The notes below the pieces were generated by a model. The model made no database searches, was not told where the DNA came from, and saw only the letters and a list, made by a program, of their open reading frames with translations. The position numbers and the translations under genes were made by a program. Of a DNA stretch of 49,232 nucleotides, positions 12,435 through 47,683 are shown one piece after another; the stretch's first letter is position 1, and every line of letters begins with the position of its first letter. The stretch is from Parcubacteria group bacterium GW2011_GWA2_49_9 (lineage in GTDB: Bacteria; Patescibacteriota; Minisyncoccia; Phycocordibacterales; UBA10002). The DNA is taken from assembly GCA_001004005.1 (NCBI GenBank), contig LCQF01000006.1, forward strand, positions 1 through 49,232, written 5' to 3'.

Positions 12435-12441
12435 GAGATTT

Positions 12442-13539: not shown

Positions 13540-13692
13540 ATTGTCTGTAATCTTATCGTCTCCATATTTGTTATAAGCGACGCAGAGAGAGGCGAAACTG
13601 CCTCGGGTTTCCATTTCCACCTAGCTCGCTGACGAAGCCGGCCAAGGAGCCTATATGGTTTTTTTCTTAACTCATATAGTATACTACCCCAC

Positions 13693-17099: not shown

Positions 17100-17374
17100 A
17101 GATGTATCTGGAAACAAGTGCAACTGTGCTAAAGTTACACGTATAGTACACCATCATATAGAATATCAATATTATTCCCTGCGTGGATGTTAAGAGACCA
17201 CAAGACAAGTTTCTTCCGGCTACGTGTGTCGTTAGTCGTTTGATTTCGTCTAAAACGCTTCGCGAGATTTGCGACCCGATTCCGCGCCACACGACTGGCC
17301 TGGCTCTATCTATAAGCTTGTGGACGAGCAAGTTAATGTTATACTGCTGATGCCACGCAATTTCCCAAGCGCTT

Positions 17375-21243: not shown

Positions 21244-21776
21244 GCACAGGTGCAAAAGAACTAGTTATCGTGGATTATGGTGTCGGGAATCTTCAGAGCC
21301 TGAAGAGAGCTTTTAACTTTTGTGGCGTAGAGCCGGTTATCTCTGAAGACCCTGACGTCGTCGCCGTTGCCGATATACTGGTTCTTCCTGGAGTCGGCTC
21401 GTTTGAGGCCGGCATGCGTGGCCTCAAACTTCGTGGTCTTACCGAAGTTGTGAAACGGGTTATCAAATTTCAGGAGCTTCCCGAAAAAGAAAAAATCCCA
21501 CAGGTCGGCTGGAACAGTGTGCTTCCTTCAGCATCAGTTTCGTGGAGAGGCACCATCTTCAATGGCCTTGAGAAAAGATGTATTGTGTATTTTGTCCATT
21601 CGTATATCTTCAAGCCCGAAGATACGCAAAATGTGCTAGGAGAGACAATCTATGGAGGCCTCACATTTTGCTCGGCGGTGCGCAAGGGAAATGTCTACGG
21701 AACACAGTTTCATCCCGAAAAGAGCGGGACCGTCGGGCTTGAGATACTTAAGAATTTTGTTACGCTAGTAAACTAA
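21240..21776 (+). CDS. HisH-like glutamine amidotransferase subunit (WbuY type) lacking the nucleophile-cysteine segment
   Basis: 'VIVDYGVGNL.S', 'LVLPGVGSF', 'VGWNSV', 'YFVHSY', 'GTQFHPEKSG' are present. The 'G.CLGMQ' block normally between 'EVVKR' and 'KF..(M/V)GWN' is absent, and the protein is 178 aa versus ~200. Confidence 0.8.
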   Translation: MSTGAKELVIVDYGVGNLQSLKRAFNFCGVEPVISEDPDVVAVADILVLPGVGSFEAGMRGLKLRGLTEVVKRVIKFQELPEKEKIPQVGWNSVLPSASVSWRGTIFNGLEKRCIVYFVHSYIFKPEDTQNVLGETIYGGLTFCSAVRKGNVYGTQFHPEKSGTVGLEILKNFVTLVN

Positions 21777-26474: not shown

Positions 26475-27569
26475 ATGAACAACAACATGATTCACTTCGG
26501 TTCTGTTTCCGTCGGCGAAGGGAAACCTTGCGTGGTTATCGCGGAGGGGTGTGATAACCACGGCGGGAGTCTCACGAAGGCAAAAGAAATGGCCGCGGCG
26601 GCAAAAGAGTCCGGCGCAGACATTATCAAATTCCAGTTGCACCTCCCCGACGAGGAAATGGTGAAAGATGAAATGGATAAAGTTTCTTCCGGCGGTGCGT
26701 TTAAGCAGTGGGGGTCACTCTACGGCTTTATCAAAGCTCACCAGCTTTCGGTGGAAGGCCATGCCGACCTTATGGCCTACTGCAAAAAAATCGGCATAGA
26801 GTACCTCTGCACGCCGTTTTCACTGAGGGCCGCCGAGCTCCTGCGCGACATGGGCGCGACCGCCTTCAAAATCGGTTCCGGCGAAACCGAGGATTTGCCC
26901 ATGCTCGAGGAGGTGGCGAAGATGGGGAAACCGATGATGATAGCGACTGGTATGACAACCAAGGAAGAACTCGACGGGACGGTCACAACGATGCGTGCCA
27001 TCGGCACGCCATTTTGTCTTGCCCATTGTATTTCGGTCTATCCCGTAAAACGCCTGCGAGATTTGCATTTCGGAACCATCGCCGCTTACAGGGAGCGCTA
27101 CGACGTACCGGTCGGCTGGTCGGACCACACGCCGCCCGAAGGCATCACCGATGAAGAATCGGGCCGACAGTTTTCCGAAAATGAAATTCTCGCGGTGGCG
27201 CTCGGATGCGGCGCGAAGTTCATCGAAAAACACTTCACGCTTGACCGCGCCACGAAAGACGCCGACAGCTACTTCTCGCACGATCCGCAGACTCTGAAAA
27301 GCCTTGTAGAAAATGTCCGGCTTTGGGAACGTGCGCTCAAGGAACGTGACGGCGTGCTGACGGGAGAAAAAGGCGTCCGTTTGTGGGCGAAGCGAAGTCT
27401 TGTCGCTGTAGCGGATATTACCCGCGGTACGCCGCTTACACGGGAGCTTTTTACGTCCAAGCGTCCCGGCGTCGGCGTGCTCTCAAAAGGATATAAAGCC
27501 GTTCTTGGCAAGAAAGCCTCGCGCGACATTGCTGCGGGTGAAATAATCTACCCAAAAGATTTGTTGTAG
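26475..27569 (+). CDS. neuB: N-acetylneuraminate/legionaminate synthase family (NeuB/LegI/PseI-like) with C-terminal SAF domain
   Basis: 'GKPCVVIAEGCDNHGGSL..AKEM..AAKESGADIIKFQ', 'FKIGSGE', and a C-terminal 'RSLVAVADI.RGTPLT.ELFTSKRPG.G'. Confidence 0.88.
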   Translation: MNNNMIHFGSVSVGEGKPCVVIAEGCDNHGGSLTKAKEMAAAAKESGADIIKFQLHLPDEEMVKDEMDKVSSGGAFKQWGSLYGFIKAHQLSVEGHADLMAYCKKIGIEYLCTPFSLRAAELLRDMGATAFKIGSGETEDLPMLEEVAKMGKPMMIATGMTTKEELDGTVTTMRAIGTPFCLAHCISVYPVKRLRDLHFGTIAAYRERYDVPVGWSDHTPPEGITDEESGRQFSENEILAVALGCGAKFIEKHFTLDRATKDADSYFSHDPQTLKSLVENVRLWERALKERDGVLTGEKGVRLWAKRSLVAVADITRGTPLTRELFTSKRPGVGVLSKGYKAVLGKKASRDIAAGEIIYPKDLL

Positions 27570-29676: not shown

Positions 29677-29723
29677 AATGTATGTCAATAAGGACTCACG
29701 CGACACTTATGGGTCGGGTTGTT

Positions 29724-31499
29724 ATGAAGAGGATTAGGTTGCAAAACCTATTTTCTTTGTGCTCCCGCGCATTCGGTCCGTATAAGGCGGCGGTTGTTGG
29801 TATGGCGATTCTTAGTTTTTTAAGCGGTACCCTTGAAGGCGTCGGCATTACTACCGTTATCCCGCTTTTTTCCGTTATCGTCGGAGGAGAAGCTACCGAC
29901 GTCATTTCACACGCGATAGCCGGCCTGTTCGCTTTCCTGCACCTCCCCTTTACGGCGAAGTTTCTGCTGGGGTTCATGGTGTGTTTGTTTTTTGCCAAAG
30001 CCGTTTTTCTTTTCTTCTCACAGCAACTTACCGCACATGTAACTTCCGACTTTGAAAAAAAGATGCGCAGTTCACTTCTGCGCCTTACCTTTACGGCGAA
30101 TTGGCCGTTTCTTTCTTCACAGAAAGTTGGGCATCTCGACCAGATGCTCACGACGGAAGTTTCCAACAGCTCAGCGATACTCCTGTATCTTAGCAACGCG
30201 ATTTTCGTGCTCGTCAACCTGTTCGTCTACAGCTTCCTTGTGTTCAATATTTCTCCTTCAATCGCCGCGCTCACAGTATTTTTCGGAGCCGTTGTCTTTT
30301 TCATCTTTATGCCGCTTATGCAGAAAACACGGATGACGTCGGAAAAAATGGTGCGCCGAAATAAGGAACTTGCCCACTACGCGAGCGAGCATATCATCGG
30401 TGCGAAAACGCTGAAGGCGATGCGTCTTGAAGAGCCTGTTTTCTTACGTGGGACATTCCTCGCCGAGAAGATGCGCGGACTCTATCTCCGGCTTTCATTC
30501 CTGAAAAACATAACCGGTGCACTCGTGCAACTCGCAGGCGTTTTCTTTGTAGTCGGCCTCTTTATTTTCCTCTACAAAACCTCGGTGTTTCAGTTCGCTT
30601 CGTTTGCCGTTGCTGTCTATGCGCTGAATAAGGTCTTCAGTAATGTTCAATTTGCCCAATCAAGCGCGCACGCGATCAGCATGCAAATACCGTATCTTGA
30701 AAGCCTTCTTCGCCATATCGACGAAGCCACGCTAAGTGGCGAGACGGAAACCGGACACGGGGATTTTTCCTTTACACATGAACTTGCCTTTAACAAAGTG
30801 GACTTTGCCTATTCCGGCAAAGATGCGGCGCTTTCCTCCGTCGGTTTTACGGTTAAGAAAGGTGACATGGTTGGGATTGTAGGTCCGTCTGGAGCCGGAA
30901 AGACCACATTGGTTGACCTACTGCTTCGCCTCATTGTGCCGCAGGCAGGAAGTATTCTTCTTGACGGAAAAGATATCAGCGATATCAGTCTCTCGAAATG
31001 GAGGGGGCATATAGGATATGTTTCGCAGGAAATATTCCTGCTGAACGATACGATTGAAAACAATATACGTTTTTACGATGCGGCCATGACCACGGAACAT
31101 ATCATTGAAGCCGCGAGGCTTGCCAATATCTACGATTTTGTTGATTCGCTTCCCGAAAAATTTAAGACCATCGTCGGTGAGCGGGGAGTCCTCCTTTCGG
31201 GCGGACAAAAACAACGCGTCGTGCTTGCGCGTGTGCTTGCTCGGAAGCGTGAAATCCTCGTGCTTGACGAAGCCACCAGCGCGCTTGATAACGAATCAGA
31301 AGTCCTGATACAGAAAGCCATTGAAGGACTTCGCGGCAGGATGACCGTACTTGTCATCGCGCATCGCCTCTCCACCGTGAAGGCTTCGGATAAGCTTATC
31401 GTGCTTGCCGAAGGGAAGGTCGTGGAAACAGGTTCGCCCGAAGCGCTTCTCAAAGACAAGGATTCGTATTTTTCCAAAGTAAATAATCTTCGAAACTGA
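29724..31499 (+). CDS. ABC transporter, fused permease/ATPase (MsbA-like exporter)
   Basis: Six N-terminal TM segments; Walker A 'GPSGAGKTT', signature 'LSGGQKQR', Walker B 'ILVLDEATSALD', H-loop 'IAHRLST'. The ORF is open from 29682. Confidence 0.92.
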   Translation: MKRIRLQNLFSLCSRAFGPYKAAVVGMAILSFLSGTLEGVGITTVIPLFSVIVGGEATDVISHAIAGLFAFLHLPFTAKFLLGFMVCLFFAKAVFLFFSQQLTAHVTSDFEKKMRSSLLRLTFTANWPFLSSQKVGHLDQMLTTEVSNSSAILLYLSNAIFVLVNLFVYSFLVFNISPSIAALTVFFGAVVFFIFMPLMQKTRMTSEKMVRRNKELAHYASEHIIGAKTLKAMRLEEPVFLRGTFLAEKMRGLYLRLSFLKNITGALVQLAGVFFVVGLFIFLYKTSVFQFASFAVAVYALNKVFSNVQFAQSSAHAISMQIPYLESLLRHIDEATLSGETETGHGDFSFTHELAFNKVDFAYSGKDAALSSVGFTVKKGDMVGIVGPSGAGKTTLVDLLLRLIVPQAGSILLDGKDISDISLSKWRGHIGYVSQEIFLLNDTIENNIRFYDAAMTTEHIIEAARLANIYDFVDSLPEKFKTIVGERGVLLSGGQKQRVVLARVLARKREILVLDEATSALDNESEVLIQKAIEGLRGRMTVLVIAHRLSTVKASDKLIVLAEGKVVETGSPEALLKDKDSYFSKVNNLRN

Positions 31500-31500
31500 T

Positions 31501-32928
31501 ATGCGGCTTTTTCTTATACAGTGGAGTGGCAAAGAATTGGGAATGATTGATGTCGTGAAGCGTTTACAGCGCGACTATACGATTGCGTATTGGGTGCTAC
31601 CCAATATCGAAAAAGAGGTGGATAAGGGAGAGTTCCCCTCGACAATCTTTCATGAACACGCAGATGCTCTTCAGGGGAAGCCAGCACCGGATGTGGACGT
31701 ATCGGGTTTCGAGCCGCCGAGCGCACAGCTGCTCGAAGAGCTCTCGACCACTGAATCAGTTGTTCTTACCATGATGAATAAGCTTCTCGGTCACCTGTCG
31801 GTTACCGAGCGCAAACGTCTCTATTACCGGATACTCGGTTATTGGTCCGGTGTCTTCAAAACACATCGCCCCGATGTGGTTATCTTTCCACTTGTGCCGC
31901 ACACAGTCTATGACCTCGTTATCTACGACCTAGCCAAGTCTTTGGGAATCCGGACCGTCATGTTTACGGCCACGCAGGACTTTATACGCCTCATGCCGAT
32001 GACCGATTTTGTTGAAGGTATTTCCAAACTTAACCGCGAGTTTACGGCACGGGAGAATGAACGGGTCACGCTTAGTGATATCGCTGTAGATATACGAGCG
32101 TACATCGCCAAACACACTGAAGCAAAGGGCGATCCCACCCCCCCGAATATGCGGAATATGAAGGAAAAGTACGGGACGAAAAAATCAGTCATTCTTGCGC
32201 GCGCGGTCAAAGACCTGACCGTATTTCAAAAAAGCTTTCACTATCTGCGCAAGCGGTTTGGCGCCAATCTAGAACGTGAATACCAGAATGTCTCGCGCAT
32301 TCCCGATCTTTCAAGGAAATTTGTCTACGTTCCGCTCCAGTTTCAGCCCGAAGCCACCACCTCGCCCCTTGGCGGTGTCTTTGTTGACCAGCGGCTTCTC
32401 ATAGAGACGCTTTCCGCAGCGCTTCCCAAAGACTGGGTTATCTACGTGAAGGAACACCCGCGCCAGTTCATCTTCTACGGCTTGAATTTTTCGCAGTATC
32501 GTTATCGGGGATATTATGAGGGTATCGCTAAACTCCCGAATGTTCGTATTGTTCCCACAGGTACGGACACATTCTCGCTCATCCAGGCCTCGCAGGCGGT
32601 GGCGCTCAATACCGGCACTGCGGGGCTTGAGGCGGTACTTCGTGGGAAGCCTGTGCTTGCGTTCGGATATGCGTGGTATAGAGGCTGTCCCGGGATATTT
32701 TCCGTTTCGGATACGGCCTCTTGCAAGGCGGTATTTGATACTATACTCTCTGGATTCTCAATTAACCGCAACAAGCTCATTACGTTTTTTGCCTGTGTGG
32801 ACCGTGTGAGCTTTAAGGGGTATGTCGAGCCACATATGCAAAAACTTTGCGGATTGAGTCCTTCGGAAAACGCGGATGCTTTGACAAAAGCACTCATTGC
32901 GGAAATAGGTCGATTGGCTTACACTTAA
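31501..32928 (+). CDS. Capsule polysaccharide biosynthesis protein family (Capsule_synth, KpsS/KpsC-like), second paralogue
   Basis: 'FVYVPLQFQPEATT', 'VIYVKEHPRQ', 'NVRIVP', 'AVALNTGTAGLEAVLRGKPVLAFG'. It aligns block by block with 15591-17099. Confidence 0.72.
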   Translation: MRLFLIQWSGKELGMIDVVKRLQRDYTIAYWVLPNIEKEVDKGEFPSTIFHEHADALQGKPAPDVDVSGFEPPSAQLLEELSTTESVVLTMMNKLLGHLSVTERKRLYYRILGYWSGVFKTHRPDVVIFPLVPHTVYDLVIYDLAKSLGIRTVMFTATQDFIRLMPMTDFVEGISKLNREFTARENERVTLSDIAVDIRAYIAKHTEAKGDPTPPNMRNMKEKYGTKKSVILARAVKDLTVFQKSFHYLRKRFGANLEREYQNVSRIPDLSRKFVYVPLQFQPEATTSPLGGVFVDQRLLIETLSAALPKDWVIYVKEHPRQFIFYGLNFSQYRYRGYYEGIAKLPNVRIVPTGTDTFSLIQASQAVALNTGTAGLEAVLRGKPVLAFGYAWYRGCPGIFSVSDTASCKAVFDTILSGFSINRNKLITFFACVDRVSFKGYVEPHMQKLCGLSPSENADALTKALIAEIGRLAYT

Positions 32929-34380: not shown

Positions 34381-35151
34381 ATGACTCGAGAAAAACTGCT
34401 TGCAAACTTAGGGGAACACATGCGGGAGCTCTATGTTACCGGAAAGTATTATGTATCGGTACCGCCGATTCCCGACAAGAACTTTGAAGAGGGGTATTGG
34501 CACACGATTATAGACCCCGACGGAAAGAAGCGCGACCGCCTTGCCGAGAAGGACCAATGTCTTGCCGATATAGACTATGTGTTTGAGTACCTGAAAACCG
34601 TGAAGCACGGTTCGGTGCTTGATGTCGGTTGCGGACTCGGTTGGTTTCTCTCCGCGTTACCCAAGGGTTGGAAAAAATACGGACTTGAGGTCTCGAAAGT
34701 AGCCGCCGAGTATGCGGCAAAGTTTGGAGATATTTTCCATGGAACACTCCTTACGAGTCGTTACAAGGAAAATATGTTTGACGTGATTTTTATGCACCAC
34801 GTCATAGAGCATCTCCCAAAGCCGGAAGATGATTTTAAAGTCATCAAACGGATACTAAAGCCTGGCGGACTGCTGATACTGGGTACCCCCGATTTTGATT
34901 CAGGTTGCGCACGTTTGTTCGGAAAAAATTACCGCCTGCTTCATGACGGGACGCATGTCAGCCTATTCTCAAACGACTCTCTTCATCGCTTTTTACGCGA
35001 CAATGGATTCAGTATAGTGCGTGTTGAATATCCGTTCTGGAAGACACGGTTCTTCACCAAAGAAAATCTGATGCGCCTTTTCAACATCCGTGTTATGTCG
35101 CCACCTTTCTACGGCAATTTTATGACTTTCTTCTGCACCAATGAAAAATAA
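34381..35151 (+). CDS. Class I SAM-dependent methyltransferase
   Basis: 'VLDVGCGLGWFL', 'FDVIFMHHVIEHL', 'LKPGGLLILGTPD'. Confidence 0.87.
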   Translation: MTREKLLANLGEHMRELYVTGKYYVSVPPIPDKNFEEGYWHTIIDPDGKKRDRLAEKDQCLADIDYVFEYLKTVKHGSVLDVGCGLGWFLSALPKGWKKYGLEVSKVAAEYAAKFGDIFHGTLLTSRYKENMFDVIFMHHVIEHLPKPEDDFKVIKRILKPGGLLILGTPDFDSGCARLFGKNYRLLHDGTHVSLFSNDSLHRFLRDNGFSIVRVEYPFWKTRFFTKENLMRLFNIRVMSPPFYGNFMTFFCTNEK

Positions 35152-35791
35152 ACCACGCATCGTGTCCGTACTGTTGGCCCGCGGCGGAAGCAAGGGAATA
35201 CCTCGGAAGAACATCATACCTCTTGGAGGGAAGCCGCTCATACAGTATACGATTGACGCCTCAATACATGGAGGAGCTGATGAAACGTGGGTCAGTACGG
35301 ACAGTGATGAGATTGCCGAAGTCTCTGAACGTCTTGGTGCGAAGATATTGAAACGACCCGCCGAACTTGCGGGCGATACGGCGTCCAGTGAATCCGCGCT
35401 CCTGCATTTCGCGGAGAATGTTGATTTTGACTGGCTTATCTTCATCCAGCCGACGTCGCCCCTCCTCCTTCCCGATGATATAAAAAAGGGAATAACGAAG
35501 ATGAAAGAAGGGAAGTACGATTCGGTTTTCAGTGCCTACGAAGAGCATTGGATGGCGACGTGGGATGAGAAAGGACAGCCGCGGGGGTGGGATATCTTTC
35601 ATCGTCCCCGTCGGCAGGATGCAGAACCAGTCTTCCGCGAGAACGGCGCGTTTTATATCACCAAAAAAGAGCATCTTCTCAAATCAAGACTTCGTTACAG
35701 CGGTATCATTGGTATCGTGGAGATGCCGTTCTATAGAAGCTTTCAGATAGATACGCAAGAGGACCTCGCCTTTGTTGAGAAAATTATATAA
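35141..35791 (+). CDS. Acylneuraminate cytidylyltransferase family, second copy (CMP-ulosonic acid synthetase-like)
   Basis: 'LLARGGSKGIPRKN...GGKPLI.YTI', 'IQPTSPLL', 'RRQD..PVFRENGAFYI'. It overlaps the upstream gene by 11 nt. Confidence 0.87.
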   Translation: MKNKPRIVSVLLARGGSKGIPRKNIIPLGGKPLIQYTIDASIHGGADETWVSTDSDEIAEVSERLGAKILKRPAELAGDTASSESALLHFAENVDFDWLIFIQPTSPLLLPDDIKKGITKMKEGKYDSVFSAYEEHWMATWDEKGQPRGWDIFHRPRRQDAEPVFRENGAFYITKKEHLLKSRLRYSGIIGIVEMPFYRSFQIDTQEDLAFVEKII

Positions 35792-36092
35792 AAGCGGTAT
35801 TGACCCCAGAGCAAGCCCTAGTTTTAAGGAACAAGCAATGCTCGTACTTTGTGGGGACAAGCCTTGCGGTAGTAAACCCTTATATCTGCGTCTAGCTCGG
35901 ACGCCATGAAAACTAAGAAGTTTTCGCGGCTTTCCCTACGGGAACGGTACACCTTTCGCCTTTGAAGACAAACGCTCAAGGTCTTGCGGAAGCTCCACGT
36001 CTTCGCTTCCTCACCTCGCTAGCCGAAATAAACAGACATAGAATTCTCTCTCCCGATTCCGGCATACGTGAGAACTCAAGCGTACCAACTCT

Positions 36093-36665
36093 TTAATCGG
36101 AAAAGGTGTCCTCTACCTCTCCGCATATCGCGTGGATAAGGGCAATCTGTACTTCCTGTATATGCGTCGTACGCGTATCGGTAAGCGCTATCGTGATGTT
36201 GGCGCATCCAGCGAGCAACCCCCCGCTATTTCCTAGAAGACACACACTTGTTATACCAAGGGTTTTTGCTTTTTCCACGGCACGGACGATATTTTTGGAG
36301 GTACCACTTGTGGAAATACCGAAAAAAATATCCTCCGGTTTTGCGAACGCTTCAAGCTGTCTCGCGAATACATCTTCAAACTTATGGTCATTGCTCCACG
36401 CGGTAATGGTTGGAGAAGAAGTGAGAGCGATGGCGGGGCGTGCTCGGCGTTCTTTCATGAATCGTCCGACAAACTCGGTGGCGAAATGCTCTGCGTCTGC
36501 CGCGCTTCCACCGTTTCCGGCGATAAGCAGTTTACCGCCTTTGGCGAAGCACTTGGAAATAAGAGTAGCCGCTGCGCTCACATTTCTCATCAATACCGTG
36601 TCTTCACGTGCCGCATCAATGGCTGCGGCCGTTTCTTTCAAATGTTGTGTAATAAAGGTTTCCAT
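36093..36665 (-). CDS. SIS-domain sugar-phosphate isomerase (GmhA/phosphoheptose isomerase-like)
   Basis: 'GGKLLIAGNGGSAADAEHFATEFVGRF', 'ISTSGTSKN', and a length of 190 aa. Confidence 0.85.
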   Translation of the reverse strand: METFITQHLKETAAAIDAAREDTVLMRNVSAAATLISKCFAKGGKLLIAGNGGSAADAEHFATEFVGRFMKERRARPAIALTSSPTITAWSNDHKFEDVFARQLEAFAKPEDIFFGISTSGTSKNIVRAVEKAKTLGITSVCLLGNSGGLLAGCANITIALTDTRTTHIQEVQIALIHAICGEVEDTFSD

Positions 36666-36690
36666 ATAGATTAGGACCTACGCAATCGGT

Positions 36691-36766
36691 GTCATTCTCC
36701 TGAAAAGGGGAATCCAGAACCTCATTAAAGGGCTTTATACTGGATTCCCGCCTCCGCGGGAATGAC
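36691..36766. repeat. Inverted pair of 27-nt 'GTCATTC..GGAATCCAG' palindromic units (dRS3-like ATTCCC-N8-GGGAAT type)
   Basis: 'gtcattctcctgaaaaggggaatccag' (36691-36717) and 'ctggattcccgcctccgcgggaatgac' (36740-36766), in opposite orientation and 22 nt apart. Confidence 0.7.
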
Positions 36767-36862
36767 AGAAAAGTGCGAAATGCGTAAGTCCTACAGATGT
36801 TACTTTTTTCTTATAGATGAGTTGTATATACTATAACAATTCTTTATCGTTAAAGTAACACC

Positions 36863-37729
36863 ATGAGTACGGTCATTGTAGGTAAGAAGAAAGTCGGCAA
36901 CGAGCATCCTTGTTTTTTCGTTGCCGAAATAGGTATCAATCATAACGGCTCACTTGAAACGGCGAAAAAGCTTATTGACGCGGCTTTTGAGGCAGGGTGC
37001 GACGCCGTCAAATTTCAGAAACGGACTGTTGAAGTGGTGTATACAGCAGAAGACCTCGCGAAACCCCGTGACAATCCGTTCGGGCCGACGAACGGTCATT
37101 TGAAGCGGGGTCTTGAGTTCGGAGAGAAGGAATATGCCGAAATTGATCGTTATGTAAAAGAGAAAGGACTTTTGTGGTTCGCTTCTCCGTGGGATGAGCA
37201 GTCGGTGGACTTCCTCCACCGGTTCGACCCCCCTTGCTACAAAATCGCTTCCGCCAGCCTAACCGACGATGGACTCCTCCGTCATATACGTTCTAAAGGG
37301 AAGCCAGTGATGCTCTCTACGGGTATGAGCACCATGGAAGAAATTGAGCATGCCGTTAAAGTTTTAGGAAAACAGGATCTTGTGCTCCTGCATACGGTGG
37401 CAACCTATCCCGCGAATAATGAAGAGTTGAATCTCAAAATGATTAGAACGTTTCAGGAGAGATTTCCGAATGTGCTCATTGGTTATAGTGGACACGAGAA
37501 GGGGGTATCGCCTTCGGTTATGGCGGCTGTACTCGGAGCGTGCGTGATAGAACGTCACATAACGCTTGACCGCACTAGCTGGGGTTCTGATCAGGCAGCA
37601 AGCCTAGAGCCGAAAGGTCTTGAGCTTATGGTGCGCGACATTCGCACATGGGAGGTCTCAAGAGGTGACGGGGTGAAGCGAGTACTTGACACTGAAATCC
37701 CTGTGAAGAAGAAACTGCGCCGAAAGTGA
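36863..37729 (+). CDS. NeuB-family ulosonic-acid (phosphate) synthase paralogue without a SAF domain
   Basis: 'PCFFVAEIGINHNGSLETAKKLIDAAFEAGCDAVKFQKR', 'YKIASASL', 'GYSGHE.G'. It ends at 288 aa, just before the point where the SAF domain begins in 26475-27569. Confidence 0.8.
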   Translation: MSTVIVGKKKVGNEHPCFFVAEIGINHNGSLETAKKLIDAAFEAGCDAVKFQKRTVEVVYTAEDLAKPRDNPFGPTNGHLKRGLEFGEKEYAEIDRYVKEKGLLWFASPWDEQSVDFLHRFDPPCYKIASASLTDDGLLRHIRSKGKPVMLSTGMSTMEEIEHAVKVLGKQDLVLLHTVATYPANNEELNLKMIRTFQERFPNVLIGYSGHEKGVSPSVMAAVLGACVIERHITLDRTSWGSDQAASLEPKGLELMVRDIRTWEVSRGDGVKRVLDTEIPVKKKLRRK

Positions 37730-37847
37730 CTCCGCGCAGTCGGAGTCATCCCCACGACGGAACAGCAGTGAAGTAAGCCTGTGTCGTAGTGGAATAGTCG
37801 TAGACTGACTATCGTAGACTATGCGGGGATCCAGAGAATAGTGCATA

Positions 37848-38288
37848 ATGGTACTCTCTATGTCCGCCCACGTTATTAGGAAAGGAATGATTGACGAGAT
37901 GCTCGCGCTCGCTCCGCGGCAGGGGAAGCGATTACTTGAACCGCTTAAAGATATTTCCTCAAAGGAGAAGTTACCGTTTAACCTACTTGAGGAAACGAAC
38001 GTATCTAATGACGCAGAAGTACACACTCATGAAGCCGACCTTTGGTATTGTTTGTCGGGGGAAGTGACGTTTATCTGTGGTGGTGAACTTGTTCACGGAA
38101 TTCCGAGGAAATTAAAAGACGGAACCATAGATGAGCGCGAATGGAAGGCGAAGGAGATACGAGGAGGCGAAGCAATTATTCTCAAAGCGGGAGACTGGCT
38201 GCATATTCCCGCGGGCGTACCGCATCAACATCGTGCGGTCGGCACCGCGAAACTCATCATAATCAAAGTGCCGTCTGTTTCAGGATGA
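37848..38288 (+). CDS. Cupin-domain protein (small, possibly sugar-phosphate isomerase/epimerase type)
   Basis: 'HTHEADLWYCLSGEVTF' and 'GDWLHIPAGVPHQH', the two cupin motifs. Confidence 0.7.
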   Translation: MVLSMSAHVIRKGMIDEMLALAPRQGKRLLEPLKDISSKEKLPFNLLEETNVSNDAEVHTHEADLWYCLSGEVTFICGGELVHGIPRKLKDGTIDEREWKAKEIRGGEAIILKAGDWLHIPAGVPHQHRAVGTAKLIIIKVPSVSG

Positions 38289-38300
38289 ATGCCTAAAATT

Positions 38301-38329
38301 ATCGCCCGTCTTTTCCGAAGACGGGCGAT
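38301..38329. terminator. Perfect 12-bp hairpin between convergent genes
   Basis: 'atcgcccgtctt-ttccg-aagacgggcgat', located between the stop codons at 38288 (+) and 38333 (-). Confidence 0.65.
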
Positions 38330-38332
38330 GGC

Positions 38333-39031
38333 TCACACGGGACAGGACTCTTTGATAACGTAGTATTTTCCCGCCCCCAAGTGATAGATAATCTTCTCCG
38401 GCCGGTCGGCAAAGAACTCATTAATCGCTCTGCTACAGCCCGGCCACTTTTCAGCGCCGTCGTACGGCGGTTCAGGGTGAATTTCGAGATATTCGTCAAA
38501 AGCGACGATTCCACCCGATACGACTTTGGGGAACAAGCATGTCAGCGCGTCGTGGTATCCACGATATAGGTCCACATCAAGATGAAGAAAAGCAATCTGC
38601 TGTACTTTCGCGCTCGGCAGGCTGTCCGAAAGGAACCCTGCAACGAGACGCAGTTCCAGTTCAGGAAATGAAGTGAATATACTTGCCTCCGCGAGCCGCT
38701 GACGTACTTGTTTTTCACTTACCTTCCATTCGCCTCTTTTCGGATTTCGCGGTGACGCATCGCAAACGTCTGGTTCAGGCCAGCCTTCAAATGAATCAAA
38801 TCCCCATACGTGGCGGGAACAAAATCCTTCCTCGCTTCCAGCAAGGTACGCAAGCATGGAAAAGGTTGAACCTTCCCCGAGTCCGCACTCAACGATGTCG
38901 CCGGAAAGCAGATGAATCTTATCAAAGAGAAAGCAGAAATAACGGAATTGACGCATCCACGCCACAGGGACGGCGGGAACGGTGTGCCACTGGGTCGGGA
39001 ACGGAGTCGGTACGGATGATGTGGTATTCAT
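38333..39031 (-). CDS. TylF/macrocin-O-methyltransferase-family methyltransferase
   Basis: 'GDIVECGLGEGSTFSMLA', 'FLHLDVDLYRGYHDALTCLFPKVVSGGIVAFDEY'. Confidence 0.82.
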   Translation of the reverse strand: MNTTSSVPTPFPTQWHTVPAVPVAWMRQFRYFCFLFDKIHLLSGDIVECGLGEGSTFSMLAYLAGSEEGFCSRHVWGFDSFEGWPEPDVCDASPRNPKRGEWKVSEKQVRQRLAEASIFTSFPELELRLVAGFLSDSLPSAKVQQIAFLHLDVDLYRGYHDALTCLFPKVVSGGIVAFDEYLEIHPEPPYDGAEKWPGCSRAINEFFADRPEKIIYHLGAGKYYVIKESCPV

Positions 39032-39123
39032 TTGATTTACTGTTTGGTCTCGTAATATCTAATCACGTCTGAGACATGATGTCAATGATGGGGCGCACGG
39101 AAAAGTTTGTTATTATTGTGTGT

Positions 39124-39530
39124 ATGGATATAACTCTTAAAACAAAACTAGAAAATATACGGCTGGTCGCCACCGACTTTGACGGCGTGCATACGAACGG
39201 GTGCGTTCATGTTGACGAACACGGCGTTGAAAGCGTCACCTGTAGCCGTAAAGACGGACTGGGCATTGACCTCCTTAAGAAAGCGGGGATAGAGGTGCAT
39301 GTCATCTCTAAAGAGAGAAATCCTGTTGTTGCGGCGCGCTGTATATGGGTGACGACCTCAACGACAAAGCTCCGCTTGAATATGCCGGAGTCGCGATTAC
39401 CGTCGCGGACGGCCATTCCACCCTTTTGTCGTTATGCGACTACGTAACCGAAAGGAGGGGAGGAGACCATGCCATACGGGAAGTAGCGGAACTTATTCTT
39501 GAAGCACAAGGTCACGCGGTCACTTTTTAG
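39124..39530 (+). pseudogene. KdsC-like HAD phosphatase (ulosonate-phosphate phosphatase) split over two frames near 39338-39345
   Basis: Frame A reads 'IRLVATDFDGVHTNG..DEHG.E...CSRKDGLGIDLLKKAGIEVHVISKE.NPVVAAR'. Frame B reads 'YMGDDLNDKAPLEYAGVAITVADGH....CDYVTERRGGDHAIREVAELILEAQG'. About 40-45 aa of the expected linker ('..LGI......DK......') are missing. Confidence 0.75.
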
Positions 39531-39552: not shown

Positions 39553-39576
39553 CGGCGCCACAGGCGCCGCTTTTTG
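39553..39576 (+). terminator. Rho-independent terminator candidate
   Basis: 'cggcgcc-aca-ggcgccg' followed by 'ctttttg'. Confidence 0.65.
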
Positions 39577-39601
39577 TTGATATTGCGGAGAGAACGCATT
39601 G

Positions 39602-41823: not shown

Positions 41824-41864
41824 GACGAGGCTCAACCTCAACCACGACGAGGTTGAGCCTCGTC
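41824..41864. repeat. Perfect 16-bp-stem hairpin at the 3' flank of the RAYT-like gene
   Basis: 'gacgaggctcaacctc-aaccacgac-gaggttgagcctcgtc'. The transposase stop codon lies inside it. Confidence 0.8.
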
Positions 41865-42539
41865 AGCGTATCGGAGCCAGTCAGAAATCTCCCGATTAAA
41901 AGTTGTCTTCTCTGGAAAGTAACCGGGGAACTCTTTTTGGTTGAGAAGTTTAGAAAATTGCCGACTGATGCCGAGATAATCGAAGTAACTTGAATAAGGA
42001 TATTCTGCCAGATATTGTTTCGCTCTCCTCCTGTCTCTAATGCCGTTCTCTTTCCATTTCGGTTCAATGATTTTTACAGGATTAAGGTGAATATATGAAA
42101 ATAGATAGCGCAAATAGGTATCGGTTTTTGCGTGCTTCGCTTTGAACCTTCCTTGAAAAAGCACCCCGTCTCTTTTTCGTCCGATGTTAAAGTACATAGT
42201 ATACGCGGTGGAAAGGCGGTGCATAAAAGCGCTAATGCCGTTTTCCGTGGTTTCGCGTACTAGGAGGTGGAAGTGATTTGGCATAAGACAATATGCGCCG
42301 ATGGCTATGATAGGGGAGTCCATCTTTTCACCGAGCGCGGACTTGATAAGCTCAAGCGAAGTCTCATCTTTCCATGCGGGCAGTCGGTCAAAACGAAAAG
42401 GAGCTTTTCCGTTGCATAGATACAGTAGAAGCATGAACCGTTTTCGGTCCGAATCATTCTCAAAGACAGGTCTTCTCTCAACCCCGCGATTGTAGAGGTG
42501 ATAGTACTCTCCTTCGGCAAATTGTATTTTGCGTGACAT
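41838..42539 (-). mobile_element. IS200/IS605-superfamily Y1 (HUH) transposase, REP-associated tyrosine transposase (RAYT)-like
   Basis: 'YYHLYNRGVERRPVF', the HUH motif in 'YCLMPNHFHLLV', and the catalytic-Tyr region 'RYLFSYIHLNPVK'; 233 aa. Confidence 0.85.
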
Positions 42540-43525: not shown

Positions 43526-44839
43526 ATGCATATTCAGGAACATATTTCTCTTAAAGAACTGACGACGATGAAAATCGGGGGAGACGCCCGCTATTTTTGT
43601 TCTGCCTCGACTGCCGAAGCTTTGGCGGAGGCGGTTTTGTTTGCTCGCGAAAAGAATGTGCCCGTTATTGTGCTTGGTGGAGGTTCCAACACGCTTGTCG
43701 CGAGTGGTGATATTAACGCGCTGGTTCTGAAAATTGAAATCAAGGGGGTTGAGTGGGAATCTCCCTTAGGAAAGTGGAATAGTCGTAGACGAGGAGCACT
43801 CCGACGTGGCGTCGGGGGAGGGTTGTTACAACCCCCGGCGCATCGGAATGCGTCCACCCCCTTTAGTAAGGGGGATTCCGTTCCGGTCGTTGTCGGCGCC
43901 GGTGAGAGCTGGGACGGCTTTGTCGCGCAAGCTGTTGAGAAAGGATTGTGGGGTATTGAAAATCTTTCCGGTATTCCCGGCACCGTAGGCGCCGCCCCTA
44001 TCCAAAATATCGGTGCGTATGGAACGGAAGTCAAAGATACGATTCTGTGGGTAGAGGTGTTTGATATCAAGGCGGGGAAGCTCCGGCGGCTTACAAACGC
44101 CGAATGCCGGTTCGCGTACCGCGACAGTATGTTTAAGCATCAGGTGGAAGGACCGTTCATCGTCTGCCGTGTGGCTTTTCTCCTCCGGAAAGATGGCGTT
44201 CCTAATTTGGAATATAAAGATTTACAAAAATATTTCGGGAATCTTTCCTCCCCTCCTTTCCAAGGTGAGAAGCGAATACTTGGAGCTTCGCAAGACCTTG
44301 AGCGTCCGTCTTCGGACGCGAAAGGTGTACAGCTTCGGTACGAAGGGGATAAGAGGGGTGGTAGTTTTCCTTCTCTCCAGCAAATCCGCAACGCTGTTAT
44401 TGAAATCCGTTCCGGGAAATTCCCCGACCTGCGGGAATTTGGTACCGCCGGTTCATTCTTCAAAAATCCGATTATCTCAAAGAAACAGTTTGATGAATTG
44501 AAAGAGAGATACCCGAATCTTCCAGGATTTCCTCTTAGCCTCTCCCCCTCTTTAGAGGGGGAGATTGAGAGGTGGTGCACCCCACCCACCCTCCCCTCTA
44601 AAGAGGGGAGGAGGGAAGAAAAGGTGAAAATCCCGCTTGCGTGGGTACTCGACAATATTTGCAATCTTAAAGGTTTCAAAAAAGGAAATGTCGCCTTGTT
44701 TGAGAAACAGCCGATTGTGCTCGTGCACAGCGGAGAGGCGACCTCGGAAGAAATTGAATTGTTCGCGAAAGAAATTGCGGACATCGTAAAAGTAAAAACC
44801 GGAATTGAAATTGAGTGGGAGGTGCAAAGAATATTTTAA
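43526..44839 (+). CDS. murB: UDP-N-acetylenolpyruvoylglucosamine reductase, enlarged by three in-frame repeat-derived insertions
   Basis: 'LTTMKIGGDARYF', 'VLGGGSNTLV', 'VVVGAGESWD', 'GIENLSGIPGTVGAAPIQNIGAYG.EV', 'C.FAYRDS.FK', 'GSFFKNP', 'IPLAWVLD..G.KG...G...L.EKQPIVLV'. It is 437 aa versus ~300 aa typical. Confidence 0.9.
   Translation: MHIQEHISLKELTTMKIGGDARYFCSASTAEALAEAVLFAREKNVPVIVLGGGSNTLVASGDINALVLKIEIKGVEWESPLGKWNSRRRGALRRGVGGGLLQPPAHRNASTPFSKGDSVPVVVGAGESWDGFVAQAVEKGLWGIENLSGIPGTVGAAPIQNIGAYGTEVKDTILWVEVFDIKAGKLRRLTNAECRFAYRDSMFKHQVEGPFIVCRVAFLLRKDGVPNLEYKDLQKYFGNLSSPPFQGEKRILGASQDLERPSSDAKGVQLRYEGDKRGGSFPSLQQIRNAVIEIRSGKFPDLREFGTAGSFFKNPIISKKQFDELKERYPNLPGFPLSLSPSLEGEIERWCTPPTLPSKEGRREEKVKIPLAWVLDNICNLKGFKKGNVALFEKQPIVLVHSGEATSEEIELFAKEIADIVKVKTGIEIEWEVQRIF
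43760..43879. repeat. Palindromic-element copy inside murB (reverse orientation relative to 34156-34301), in-frame
   Basis: 43832-43874 matches the reverse complement of 34179-34221 at 40/43. The flanking modules 'tctcccttaggaaag' and 'gcactccgacg..cgtcggggg' are co-linear with the reverse complement of 34222-34275. Confidence 0.8.
44247..44361. repeat. Second hairpin-rich insertion inside murB, in-frame (boundaries approximate)
   Basis: Bounded by the inverted 'cctcccctc' / 'gaggggtgg'. It contains 'gcgtccg-tctt-cggacgc' and encodes 'LSSPPFQGEKRILGASQDLERPSSDAKGVQLRYEGDKRGGSFP', which has no counterpart in the MurB fold as I know it. Confidence 0.55.
44540..44612. repeat. Third insertion inside murB: two G/C-homopolymer hairpins, in-frame (boundaries approximate)
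   Basis: 'ctccccctctttagagggggag' and 'cctcccctctaaagaggggagg', encoding 'LSPSLEGEIERWCTPPTLPSKEGRRE'. Confidence 0.6.
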
Positions 44840-45117: not shown

Positions 45118-47071
45118 GTATCCGTGATTGTCACTCGAAAATAAGCAGAGCACGGGTGAAGGGTTAAGGATTAAAGATTAAGGATTTCTATGTTAGTATT
45201 GCCCCATGTTTGATGGATTAAAAAAGCTATTCGGGGACGACACGGTGGCCAAGCTAAAGCCTCTTTTGGGGAACGTAGAGAAAATAAACCGCTTGGAAGA
45301 AGGCCTCAAAGCGCTGCCTAAAGAGGCGCTTAAAGAAAAGACCGCTGAACTGAAAGCCCGATTACAGAAGGGTGAGACGTTGGATGATATCCTACCCGAA
45401 GCGTTCGCGCTCGTGCGCGAATCGTCGCGGCGCACGCTTGGCGAACGGCACTTTGACGTACAACTTCTCGGCGGACAAGTCTTACATAACCGCGGCATCG
45501 CGGAGATGCGTACCGGAGAAGGGAAGACACTTGTCGCGACGCTCCCTTCGTATCTTAACGGGGGTTGTTAATCATGATTCTTCTTTTTTGTATGACCCAC
45601 TGCATAGTTCTAAGTTGGAAGTTGAAAGTTCAGAGTCAGAAAACCTAAAACTTAAAACTGATAACTTAAAACTTGACGAGACAAGGGACACACTTGGCTC
45701 GTTCAAGGTCGTGCATGAATTCCTGCGGCCGTGCACCCGGCGTGAAGCGTACGCCGCGGATATCACGTACGGCACCAACAACGAATTCGGGTTTGATTAC
45801 CTTCGCGACAATCTTGAGTATGACCCTGCGCGGCTCCGTCAGCGCGATTTCAACTATGCGATTGTGGACGAGATTGACTCCATCCTTATTGACGAGGCGC
45901 GAACCCCGCTCATTATTTCCGCCCCCACGGGTGATTCGGAAGATTTATACGCGCGGTTCGCGCAGATTGCGGGAGGCCTTGCGGCGGATACGGATTTTAC
46001 GGTAGACGAAAAACAAAAAGCGATTCAGCTCACGCCCGCGGGTATTGAGAAAGCGGAAAAGGCGCTCGGAATCGGCAATATCTACACCGAGAAAGGCATC
46101 AAGTACGTACACCATCTTGAAACCGCCGTACGGGCGAAAGCGCTCTTCCAACTTGATAAAGAGTACGTGGTGAAGAACGGCGAAATCATTATCGTGGACG
46201 AATTTACCGGCCGTATGATGCCGGGGAGGCGTTGGAGTGAAGGGTTGCATCAGGCGATTGAAGCGAAAGAAGGCGTGAAGGTGCAGAAAGAATCCCGCAC
46301 GTTTGCGTCCATCACGTTCCAGAATTATTTCAGAATGTACAAAAAGCTCGCCGGGATGACGGGTACCGCGAAAACCAGCTCCGAAGAGTTTTACAAAGTG
46401 TATGGACTTGACGTCGTTTCTATCCCGACTAACAAGCCGATTGCCCGTGCTGACCGGAACGACCAGATTTTTCAGACGGAGACGGGGAAGTACAAGGCCA
46501 TCGCGAAGAAGGTCGCGGAACTGAACAAAAAAGGCCAGCCCGTTCTCATCGGCACGGTCTCCATTGAGAAAAACGAAGTGCTTTCCGAGTACCTGCGTAC
46601 GGTCGGCGTCCCTCACGAACTTTTGAATGCCAAAAATCACGAACGGGAAGGAGAAATTATCGCCCAAGCGGGACGGCGTGGAGCGGTGACCGTCGCGACT
46701 AATATGGCTGGCCACGGCGCATTGATAACCAGCTTCGCGGACGCAGCGGACGACAGGGAGACCCCGGCGAAACGCAATTCTTCGTTTCAATGGAAGACAC
46801 ATTGATGCGGGTCTTTGCCGCGGATACTATCAAGAGTGTTATGGGGAAATTCGGTATTCCCGAAGACGAGCCGATTGAAAACAGGATGATTACCCGCTCG
46901 CTTGAATCGGCACAGACGAAAATTGAAGGCTTCAACTTTGATTCGCGCAAGCACGTACTGGAATACGACAACGTGCTCAATCACCAGCGCACCGTTATTT
47001 ATGAACGCCGGCGCAAGATGTTGCTCGGCGGCCCCGAAGCGGTGGATGAGTATCTCACTATGCTCTCGGCA

Positions 47072-47126
47072 GGGGAATCCCCCTTAGAAAAGGGGGTGCC
47101 TCCGTCTTCGGAGGCGGGGGTTGTGA
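47072..47126. repeat. Palindromic-element core inside the secA C-terminal region, in-frame
   Basis: 'cccccttagaaaagggggtg-cctccgtcttcggagg-cgggggttgtga' has the same hairpin1-TG-hairpin2-CGGGGG layout as 1139-1181 and 34179-34221. It encodes 'ESPLEKGVPPSSEAGVV'. Confidence 0.7.
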
Positions 47127-47493
47127 ATTTCGGCAAGCTCGTTGAGCAGAAAAAGCAGCAGCTCGGTGCGGAGTTCTACCCGGCCATTTCGCGCCTTATC
47201 CTCCAGACCATTGACCTCTTCTGGGTGGAGCATCTGGAAGTGATGGATTATTTGCGCGGTTCCGTAAATTTGCGCGCGTATGGCCAGCGCGACCCGCTCG
47301 TGGAATATAAGCGGGAAGGACTCAAACTTTTCAAGGATATGGAAGAGAATATCGTGAATCAGGTACTGCACGTCTTTCCACACGTTGGCGGTGCTCCCAT
47401 ACAGGAACAGGTCAAATTACAGGAGGTACACGAGCAGGCCCAGCTTATCGGCTCGGGCGATGAAGAGTCCGATGCGCAGCATCACGGCAATAT

Positions 47494-47524
47494 CCCCCTT
47501 AACAAAGGGGGTGGCCTGGGGGGG
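47494..47524. repeat. Truncated palindromic-element core inside the secA C-terminal linker, in-frame
   Basis: 'cccccttaacaaagggggtggcctggggggg', encoding 'IPLNKGGGLGGL'. Confidence 0.6.
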
Positions 47525-47683
47525 TTGTCGTCTTCACGTTCGGAACCGAAAAATCCCGACGGTTCGCGCATCGGTCGCAACGACCCCTGCTTCTGCGGAA
47601 GCGGCAAGAAGTATAAGAAGTGCCATGGAGTGTAGAGTCAGCGTTTTTCTTGCCCTCTGTAGAAAGAGGCAAAAACCCTTGTT

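Follow-up and report, generated by a model that had tools for sequence, protein, structure and literature searches.

The DNA considered here, hereafter the window, comprises positions 1 to 49,232 of contig LCQF01000006.1 from Parcubacteria group bacterium GW2011_GWA2_49_9 (assembly GCA_001004005.1). Its block of genes at 34381–39530 (Table 1) encodes a GmhA-type sugar-phosphate isomerase, a NeuB-family synthase without a SAF domain, a broken YrbI/KdsC-family phosphatase, a cytidylyltransferase, a cupin and two methyltransferases. We read this block as a self-contained phosphate-route module for a cytidine monophosphate (CMP)-activated, O-methylated 3-deoxy-2-ulosonic acid, separate from a legionaminic-type module lying upstream. 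In such a route an isomerase would supply a phosphoenolpyruvate (PEP)-condensing synthase, the product of which would be dephosphorylated and then CMP-activated, a scheme that we regard as very probable for this block.

A preliminary description of the locus had placed six open reading frames (ORFs) at 35141–39530, and Pfam and NCBIfam profile searches find all six there, with the domains that had been assigned to them. On sequence grounds the block should, however, be taken to begin at 34381, because the class-I methyltransferase gene overlaps the start of the cytidylyltransferase gene and recurs in loci of the candidate phyla radiation (CPR). A promoter and terminator scan of the region gave counts not above shuffled expectation, and the hairpin listed in Table 1 should be read with that in mind.

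Table 1. Genes and sequence features of the block and a candidate transferase gene upstream of it
Feature	Coordinates	Strand	Evidence
Class-I S-adenosylmethionine (SAM) methyltransferase (Methyltransf_23)	34381–35151	+	Pfam E 3.3e-25; stop overlaps cytidylyltransferase start by 11 nt
Second CMP-ulosonate synthetase (CTP_transf_3)	35141–35791	+	Pfam E 1e-25
GmhA-type SIS sugar-phosphate isomerase, divergent from synthase	36093–36665	-	SIS_2 E 4.8e-24
SAF-less NeuB-family synthase (NeuB2), 288 aa, KFQKR clade	36863–37729	+	NeuB domain E 9.7e-78
Small metal-binding-type cupin	37848–38288	+	Cupin_2 E 4.6e-12
TylF-family sugar O-methyltransferase	38333–39031	-	PF05711 E 1.3e-24
YrbI/KdsC-family HAD phosphatase, N-terminal part	39124–39342	+	Residues 5–73 of intact orthologue, 77% identity (tblastn)
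YrbI/KdsC-family HAD phosphatase, C-terminal part	39339–39530	+	Residues 109–171, other frame, 78% identity (tblastn)
Terminator-like GC hairpin then T-run, just 3' of phosphatase	39553–39579	+	7 GC pairs
KpsC/KpsS-like Capsule_synth, candidate ulosonic-acid transferase	31501–32928	+	PF05159 E 4.5e-10; weak BFO_1060 glycosyltransferase match

The synthase and its genomic partners

In Pfam searches the PF03102 TIM-barrel domain covers residues 37–272 of the synthase (NeuB2). As had been noted from the start, the protein has no SAF domain, while NeuB1, the synthase of the upstream module (26475–27569), does carry one. NeuB2 scores well below the NCBIfam cut-offs for NeuB_NnaB (255.8 bits against 399.65) and for PseI (214.2 bits against 340.25). 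Its best characterised match is the synthetase for the 9-phosphate of 2-keto-3-deoxy-D-glycero-D-galacto-nononate (Kdn-9-P, for Kdn) from the alga Prymnesium parvum, which is 37% identical to NeuB2 (146 bits), scores 79 bits against NeuB1 and reaches at most 80 bits with every solved NeuB, PseI or SpsE. BT1714, the Kdn-9-P synthase of Bacteroides thetaiotaomicron (sequence taken from its genomic locus), is 34% identical. A neighbour-joining tree of 20 sequences (282 columns, 200 bootstraps) places the SAF-less clade with both of these characterised Kdn-9-P synthases and puts NmNeuB, SpsE, 6NCS and NeuB1 on the other side; the bootstrap value of this split is 72 or 100, according to the side from which it is read after rooting. 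The phylogeny that the preliminary description had called for thus puts NeuB2 with Kdn-9-P synthases and not with the enzymes that use non-phosphorylated sugars.

A discrete sequence signature accompanies this placement. Only the group on the Kdn-9-P synthase side has a K[FM][QT]KR motif after strand beta-2, followed by an extended loop ending LE[FL], which together read VKFQKRT...NPFGPTNGHLKRGLEF in NeuB2. KFQKR is kept in 120 of 120 close NeuB2 homologues and is absent from NmNeuB, SpsE, 6NCS and NeuB1. For human NANS, the extended loop has been stated to bind phosphate (PMC8208679). The loop after KFQKR itself forms subtypes: NeuB2 has TNGDLK.GLEF, as against TYGEH..FLEF in the characterised Kdn-9-P synthases, and the subtypes of NeuB2 and of the NeuBs linked to the phosphatase–isomerase fusions described below differ both from the characterised users of mannose 6-phosphate (Man-6-P) and from Nonomuraea.

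SAF-less NeuBs have been remarked upon previously as an "environmental" group with unknown significance (PMC8208679). A general rule equating loss of the SAF domain with a phosphate route was considered and rejected: the loss is not diagnostic, because BT1714 carries a SAF domain, and the SAF-less Leptospira enzyme 6NCS has neither the KFQKR motif nor the loop and groups with ordinary NeuBs. The family to which NeuB2 belongs is large. More than 8000 homologues were scored, and a search of 50%-identity representatives returned 2718 at E <= 1e-30. Proteins 61–81% identical to NeuB2 are found across Parcubacteria, Acidobacteriota, Omnitrophota, Gastranaerophilales, Gammaproteobacteria, Clostridia and others; the best match has 81% identity, and the window most resembles Candidatus Taylorbacteria, a Parcubacteria/CPR lineage. 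We take NeuB2 to be a putative synthase condensing PEP with an aldose phosphate.

The synthase, phosphatase, isomerase and cytidylyltransferase can be tied together because neighbourhoods are conserved in related genomes and the genes are repeatedly fused. Partners were counted at 63 related loci where NeuB is flanked on both sides by 3 kb or more, a sample dominated by Acidobacteriaceae in which the counts are not independent events. A YrbI-type HAD gene lies within 200 bp of NeuB at 49 of these loci; a GmhA-like SIS gene is found within 600 bp at 17 and within 10 kb at 28, and a CMP-transferase gene within 10 kb at 11. The six-gene block as such, the conservation of which had been put forward for checking, does not recur: at related loci (denoted here by L numbers) the core consists of NeuB and HAD, often together with SIS and CMP-transferase.

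Gene fusions add evidence of an independent kind. In Anaerovoracaceae the gene 3' of NeuB encodes a 350-aa protein in which a YrbI-type HAD is fused to a GmhA-like SIS, and the same HAD-SIS architecture is present in all 120 best database matches (at least 120 protein clusters), down to 43% identity. Loci encoding it include L064:10890-11942, L076, L085-L087:7001-8065 and L090-L093:9001-10074, and in all seven cases inspected the fusion gene stands beside a SAF-less KFQKR NeuB. Cultured carriers of the HAD-SIS fusion were sought among the named matches, which were metagenome-assembled genomes only. Other architectures are HAD-NeuB (Mucilaginibacter), NeuB-HAD, CMP-transferase-NeuB and CMP-transferase-HAD-NeuB.

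The last of these is seen in Nonomuraea maritima (FNFB01000003.1; L088:8001-12322), where a 683-aa triple fusion is followed by a family 2 glycosyltransferase (GT2) gene and a polysialyltransferase-like gene (PF07388), with no SIS there; the arrangement has the look of a compact gene set for a poly-ulosonic-acid polymer of teichulosonic type, here in a cultured actinomycete. On a 2.4-Mb contig of an uncultured bacterium (L085:346-8053), a cassette of methyltransferase, CMP-transferase, pyruvyl-transferase-like, NeuB and HAD-SIS genes is immediately preceded by genes for flagellin and a Maf/MptE-like protein, a context that suggests flagellin glycosylation with the cassette sugar.

Isomerase, phosphatase and accessory genes

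The isomerase of the window scores 176.9 bits on the gmhA equivalog model TIGR00441, for which the cut-off is 209.45, and NeuB-linked relatives fall narrowly below the same value (203.5 bits at L079, 202.2 bits for the L086 fusion). It gives 142 bits with Campylobacter jejuni GmhA (1TK9), with the His/Glu/Gln/His positions and the phosphate-loop residues conserved. NeuB-linked SIS proteins are 41–56% identical to the GmhA enzymes of C. jejuni and Burkholderia pseudomallei, a distance no greater than theirs from one another, and they keep the catalytic and Zn positions, the residue roles being presumed from GmhA structures. To our knowledge, every characterised GmhA-family enzyme acts on sedoheptulose-7-P.

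Profile searches of the window proteins find no heptose kinase, GmhB or heptose nucleotidyltransferase, and a heptose-7-P kinase, GmhB and nucleotidyltransferase are likewise missing among the annotated recurrent neighbours at the other loci, except L086. In that Lachnospiraceae cluster (L086:1274-8065) a full heptose operon adjoins the NeuB / HAD-SIS cassette; it encodes a transaldolase, an HddA-like kinase and an HddC-GmhB fusion, together with a divergent SIS that scores 60 bits on the gmhA model. Here it is the SIS of the cassette, fused to HAD beside NeuB, that is the canonical copy (202 bits).

The phosphatase gene had been called disrupted, and in this sequence it does consist of two ORF fragments (39076/39124–39447 and 39345–39530, both +), the first of which matches the NCBIfam KdsC and KDN-9-P phosphatase models. 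Comparison with the intact orthologue of Taylorbacteria (L001:9329-9844, 171 aa) refines the picture: the two alignments lie in different frames and overlap by 4 nt at 39339–39342, and about 109 nt (35 aa) is missing at the junction, so that we are dealing with an internal deletion and not a simple frameshift. The stretch that is lost includes what we take to be the motif III lysine of HAD enzymes. About 6 kb downstream, secA (45218–47629) is split over three frames (45218–45562, 45528–46727 and 46712–47629), with some 13 and 30 residues missing at its junctions. Because the essential secA is broken twice in the same way, which would not be viable if real, the HAD deletion is probably an assembly artefact and not a genuine pseudogene; the secA and HAD junctions alike point to local assembly errors in the window.

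One might still suppose that the module is a decaying remnant from which the phosphatase has truly been deleted, a proposal that concerns its activity, not its design, and is independent of the other explanations weighed below. The missing 35 aa and the frameshift would fit such a history, as would the absence of HAD from several CPR loci altogether, yet we think it unlikely. Both HAD halves keep 77–78% identity to the orthologue, as the intact genes nearby do; the remaining genes of the module are all intact; and the two like junctions in secA cannot be real in a viable cell. Moreover, an inositol-monophosphatase-family sugar phosphatase encoded in the same glycan island (10779–11585, +) could substitute for the HAD protein. 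The preliminary description would have been refuted if NeuB2 grouped with ordinary enzymes acting on non-phosphorylated sugars and the phosphatase were a pseudogene everywhere; neither holds, the gene being intact in relatives.

The intact L001 phosphatase exceeds the TIGR01670 cut-off (110.2 bits against 106.95), on which model the two window fragments score 33 and 48 bits. It lies below the equivalog cut-offs for KdsC (125.7 bits; cut-off 208) and KDN-9-P phosphatase (101.4 bits; cut-off 180), as does the fused HAD of L086 (92.3 and 107.7 bits, respectively), and among PDB entries it gives 99–104 bits with KdsC structures and 77 bits with BT1713. Overall similarity does not discriminate between these specificities, as the L001 HAD is slightly nearer to KdsC and the fused HADs are slightly nearer to Kdn-9-P phosphatase.

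The cytidylyltransferase of the block is 41% identical to the P. parvum CMP-Kdn synthetase (149 bits), as compared with 32% (74 bits) for its paralogue in the upstream module. On NCBIfam models it scores 117 bits for PseF (cut-off 205.7) and at most 50 bits for KdsB, and it reaches no equivalog cut-off. The TylF protein scores 87.3 bits on PF05711, for which the gathering score is 23. Orthologues of the class-I methyltransferase (cluster c52) and of TylF (cluster c53) adjoin CMP-transferase and NeuB in L021 and L029, and the pair recurs in three CPR loci.

The cupin gene, the true start of which is probably the ATG at 37860, has a single orthologue among 82 loci, in L001 (77% identity). The idea that it might be a mannose-6-P isomerase finds no support. 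NCBIfam gives nothing, PDB matches are confined to short segments of quercetin dioxygenase, and a single-sequence AlphaFold (AF2) model has a predicted local distance difference test (pLDDT) score of 45 and is unusable. Both the cupin gene and the TylF gene are additions confined to particular lineages, the cupin being a rare accessory specific to Taylorbacteria.

Many relatives have another accessory set, consisting of an aminotransferase, an AP_endonuc_2 protein, a Gfo/Idh/MocA oxidoreductase and short-chain dehydrogenases/reductases (SDRs), which probably tailors the acid after condensation. The xylose-isomerase-like AP_endonuc_2 gene stands beside the cassette in L001:5773-7339, L003, L028, L045, L069, L073, L087:9846-12329 and L090:10113-12792, accompanied by SDRs and often by the Gfo/Idh/MocA oxidoreductase and the aminotransferase. 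A nonulosonic acid (NulO) synthase of Leptospira fused to an endonuclease-IV-like domain has been read as a synthase-phosphatase (PMC3438082). Since HAD is the phosphatase in the NeuB2 family and AP_endonuc_2 is a separate recurrent partner, we would question that reading; the Leptospira protein may instead join a synthase to a sugar-tailoring enzyme, and we infer that the AP_endonuc_2 partner is more likely an isomerase or dehydratase.

The block lies in one large glycan island, which takes up the rest of the window (GC about 49%) and includes Gmd, DegT, GT1 (glycosyltransferase family 1) and GT2 genes, many methyltransferase genes and two KpsC/S-like genes. Rfam and tRNA scans of the window gave no matches. 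Upstream is a separate NulO module of the nucleotide-sugar type, with WbuZ/HisH/WbuX amidotransferase genes, the first cytidylyltransferase gene, a LegB-like SDR, NeuB1 and NeuC, and a PseB-like dehydratase gene also adjoins the block. Orthologues of the Capsule_synth protein in Table 1 (cluster c30) recur in the CPR loci L001, L003, L021 and L063; this gene may belong with our block or with the upstream NulO module. Together with the second Capsule_synth gene of the island (15591–17123, -) and a fused ATP-binding cassette (ABC) exporter gene (29682–31499, +), it is a candidate for the transferases and export system of two ulosonic acids in an organism without an outer membrane.

Several further irregularities were seen in the window. 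Within the acetamidino-forming trio, the HisH-like glutamine amidotransferase (21240–21776) is short (178 aa), its hidden Markov model match is split in two, and at most about 65 residues span the first ~95 profile positions; the gene may carry another internal deletion. A REP-associated tyrosine transposase-like gene (41838–42539, -; 44.6 bits against a cut-off of 80) sits between a Wzy_C/TPR gene and the next conserved gene; the syntenic Taylorbacteria locus L001 has no such gene at this position. MurB (43526–44839) has 437 aa, as compared with 380 in L001 and 344 in L019, in a single frame, with about 60 extra residues present as internal insertions.

Chain length and competing routes

The isomerase–synthase–phosphatase–activation logic, which was put forward in the preliminary description, is borne out by the tree placement of NeuB2, its motif, the close HAD neighbour at most loci, the fusions and the likeness of the cytidylyltransferase to CMP-Kdn synthetase. 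From these we infer the order of the steps, their substrates and the target of methylation. The GmhA-type SIS would convert a ketose phosphate into a manno-configured aldose phosphate, which SAF-less NeuB2 would condense with PEP to an ulosonate bearing a terminal phosphate. The YrbI/KdsC-type phosphatase would take off this phosphate, and the second CTP_transf_3 enzyme would then form the CMP-sugar. The TylF-type and class-I methyltransferases would methylate the sugar, and a KpsC/S-like transferase would probably put it on a surface glycan.

What chain length such a route would deliver is a finer question. In its full form, with sedoheptulose-7-P giving D-glycero-D-manno-heptose-7-P and this in turn a ten-carbon homologue of Kdn, we put the proposal forward tentatively, at a little under even confidence. 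We lean toward this C10 acid over nine-carbon Kdn, the difference being small, because production of Kdn would require the isomerase to have switched its substrate, of which it gives no hint. The linked isomerases are GmhA by sequence tests, with key positions kept; linkage to SIS occurs for loop subtypes i and ii and is lacking at the Bacteroidales Kdn locus L084 and in Nonomuraea (the B. thetaiotaomicron contig, L083, is too short to show an isomerase gene). No other consumer of heptose-7-P is found in the window, and in L086, where a transaldolase gene is adjacent, it is the canonical SIS copy that goes with NeuB. Mass spectrometry of Magnetospirillum has revealed CMP-activated C10 ulosonic acids to which no genes have been assigned (bioRxiv 10.64898/2026.04.20.719630).

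Several observations weigh on the other side. No SIS lies within 10 kb of NeuB at 35 of the 63 loci, including CPR loci L019, L021, L047 and L080, which fits a substrate drawn from central metabolism. The SIS of the window is the least canonical of the set (176.9 bits), with QEVQ instead of QExH, and the phosphatase gene as sequenced is disrupted. Both characterised synthase relatives use Man-6-P, no assayed enzyme falling within the NeuB2 clade; the best-matching cytidylyltransferase, and the phosphatase model for the fused HADs, are Kdn enzymes; and the window encodes Gmd, so that the organism must make Man-6-P anyway. Finally, the reported C10 acids come from one organism only and are di-N-acetylated (bioRxiv 10.64898/2026.04.20.719630).

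Much of this evidence would be accommodated by the same route running to Kdn, later O-methylated, in which Man-6-P and PEP give Kdn-9-P, then Kdn and CMP-Kdn, with the GmhA-like protein acting as a mannose-6-P isomerase on fructose 6-phosphate or simply boosting supply. We consider this quite possible, if short of probable. All of the closest characterised counterparts (synthases, cytidylyltransferase and phosphatase family member) come from Kdn pathways, at more than half of the loci no local isomerase is needed, and Gmd implies a Man-6-P pool. The Nonomuraea triple fusion beside a polysialyltransferase-like gene, without SIS, is suggestive too: the teichulosonic acids of actinomycetes are Kdn polymers, and O-methyl-Kdn is known in rhizobia. 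Kdn is abundant in environmental extracellular polymeric substances (PMC10483923). Streptomyces has a teichulosonic (Kdn) cluster, SCO4873-4882 (PMC13011467), to which any link would be no more than putative. The Nonomuraea enzyme has a different loop subtype, however, so that its context does not transfer cleanly and a Kdn assignment carried over from it is weakened; the loop of NeuB2 is likewise unlike that of the characterised Kdn-9-P synthases. Production of Kdn would also demand a substrate-switched GmhA that nonetheless retains all GmhA hallmarks and near-equivalog scores, and it leaves unexplained why, in at least 120 protein clusters, the partner fused to the phosphatase of the pathway should be a heptose-type isomerase and not a phosphomannose isomerase.

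Two more distant explanations appear highly improbable. The parts might make up a non-homologous route to 3-deoxy-D-manno-oct-2-ulosonate (Kdo), with SIS as arabinose-5-P isomerase, the NeuB-like protein as Kdo-8-P synthase and HAD as KdsC, the resulting CMP-Kdo being destined for the KpsC/S-like transferases. The presence of two such Capsule_synth genes, and the slightly closer match of the intact Taylorbacteria HAD to KdsC than to Kdn-9-P phosphatase in both NCBIfam and PDB scores, would agree with this. Yet the SIS is GmhA-type, not KdsD-type, and the cytidylyltransferase, at no more than 50 bits on KdsB models against 117 on PseF, is closest to CMP-Kdn synthetase. We know of no NeuB-family enzyme that uses a pentose phosphate. 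The cassette is carried by Acidobacteria, which as diderms should already have the standard Kdo pathway.

Of similarly low probability is the proposal that there is no single pathway here, NeuB2 being a paralogue of the legionaminic, pseudaminic or neuraminic acid type that acts on a non-phosphorylated hexose, while SIS, cupin and methyltransferases serve a separate heptose glycan. A complete nucleotide-sugar NulO module and a PseB-like dehydratase gene do lie right beside the block, and heptose pathways of Campylobacter combine GmhA with cupin epimerases and O-methyltransferases. Against this stand the lack of a heptose kinase, GmhB or heptose nucleotidyltransferase in the window, the separation of NeuB2 from enzymes using non-phosphorylated sugars, and the NeuB-HAD adjacency and the HAD-SIS and CMP-transferase-HAD-NeuB fusions, which bind the parts to one another.

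For the widespread cassette as a whole, then, we would tentatively favor, as a possibility that stays below even confidence, a GmhA that is what its sequence says and a KFQKR synthase that condenses D-glycero-D-manno-heptose-7-phosphate with PEP to a 3-deoxy-dec-2-ulosonic acid. This acid would be CMP-activated for surface or flagellin glycans or else decarboxylated by YerE-like thiamine diphosphate (ThDP) enzymes for long acyl-branched sugars, and the cassette would be a candidate explanation for the Magnetospirillum C10 signals.

Known pathways and wider use of the cassette

The Kdn pathway of B. thetaiotaomicron consists of the Kdn-9-P synthase BT1714, the Kdn-9-P phosphatase BT1713 and a CMP-Kdn synthetase (Wang et al. 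2008, cited in PMC6200933). Like the module of the window, it has a NeuB-family PEP condensation on a sugar phosphate followed by CMP activation and a YrbI-family HAD phosphatase encoded beside the synthase (L083), and its synthase carries both the K[FM][QT]KR motif and the extended loop and falls on the NeuB2 side of the tree. The differences are that BT1714 has a SAF domain, is only 34% identical to NeuB2 and has another loop sequence, that the Bacteroidales orthologue locus L084 has no isomerase gene, and that the module of the window has, as further components, a GmhA-type isomerase, a cupin and a pair of methyltransferases. In P. parvum the synthase, like NeuB2, is SAF-less (about 300 aa), and the alga supplies the best characterised match to both NeuB2 and the cytidylyltransferase of the block. 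This, however, is a eukaryote, in which no dedicated phosphatase or isomerase is known, and its synthase has been shown to use Man-6-P (PMC6200933), which for NeuB2 is a candidate substrate only.

The Kdo pathway (KdsD-KdsA-KdsC-KdsB) shares the four-step logic and a phosphatase of the same family, but three of its four enzymes are non-orthologous to those of the block, which has a GmhA-type isomerase, a NeuB-fold synthase and a NulO-type cytidylyltransferase; profile searches of the block find neither a KdsA-type (DAHP-synthase fold) synthase domain nor a KdsD isomerase domain. As for the GmhA step of nucleotide-diphosphate-heptose biosynthesis (C. jejuni 1TK9, B. pseudomallei 2XBL), the NeuB-linked isomerases resemble it in overall identity (41–56%) and in key positions. 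They differ in setting: heptose-7-P kinase, GmhB and nucleotidyltransferase are missing, and the SIS either shares an operon with a KdsC-type phosphatase or forms one protein with it, next to a NeuB-type synthase.

A second use of the cassette is seen in clusters for CDP (cytidine diphosphate)-3,6-dideoxyhexoses (RfbF, RfbG, RfbH) of Acidobacteriota, Binatia, a gammaproteobacterium and Anaerovoracaceae, which contain NeuB-HAD(-SIS) with a gene for a YerE-like ThDP enzyme directly 3' of it and no CMP-transferase nearby. Examples of NeuB-HAD(-SIS)-ThDP occur among loci L004-L082 (e.g., L016:~7000-14000 and L079), and the order NeuB, HAD-SIS, ThDP recurs in loci L090-L093 of uncultured organisms (L090:6958-16405, L092:8173-11831). 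ThDP enzymes are known to ligate long alpha-keto acids onto CDP-4-keto-3,6-dideoxyglucose (PMC9306805). The position of the cassette directly before a YerE-like enzyme resembles the published acyl-branched-sugar scheme (YerE, ErwE, MMAR_2332, MyGE; PMC9306805) and fits a long alpha-keto-acid donor. In that scheme the keto acid comes from a pyruvate aldolase, whereas the cassette would use a PEP-dependent NeuB-type synthase. The window itself is without a ThDP enzyme and has CMP activation instead.

Searches of the literature on a link between GmhA and NulO synthases, or on deculosonic acids, found no published description of this cassette. Phosphate routes to Kdo, to the Kdn of Bacteroides and Prymnesium and to N-acetylneuraminic acid (Neu5Ac) in animals are already known. 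What is new is a common, uncharacterised variant in which a SAF-less synthase clade is combined with an integral GmhA-type isomerase, often fused to the phosphatase, and with two downstream fates. Two bacterial routes are well known, namely the nucleotide-sugar route to Neu5Ac, legionaminic acid (Leg) and pseudaminic acid (Pse) and the Kdn-9-P route of Bacteroides, and the cassette would be a third and very common one, spread over many poorly studied phyla including the CPR, Acidobacteriota, Clostridia and Omnitrophota.

Sialic-acid-like sugars on bacterial surfaces and flagella affect recognition by hosts and phages. If Kdn is the product of the cassette, NeuB2 would belong to a widespread family of bacterial Kdn synthases, which might help to explain the abundance of Kdn in environmental samples. 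If a C10 acid is made, the cassette would define a new class of sugar with no assigned biosynthesis so far and would offer candidate genes for unassigned mass-spectrometry signals. From the link to ThDP enzymes, in turn, one would predict that Acidobacteria and the organisms of L090-L093 make new long acyl-branched sugars, with the keto-acid donor supplied by a PEP-dependent synthase.

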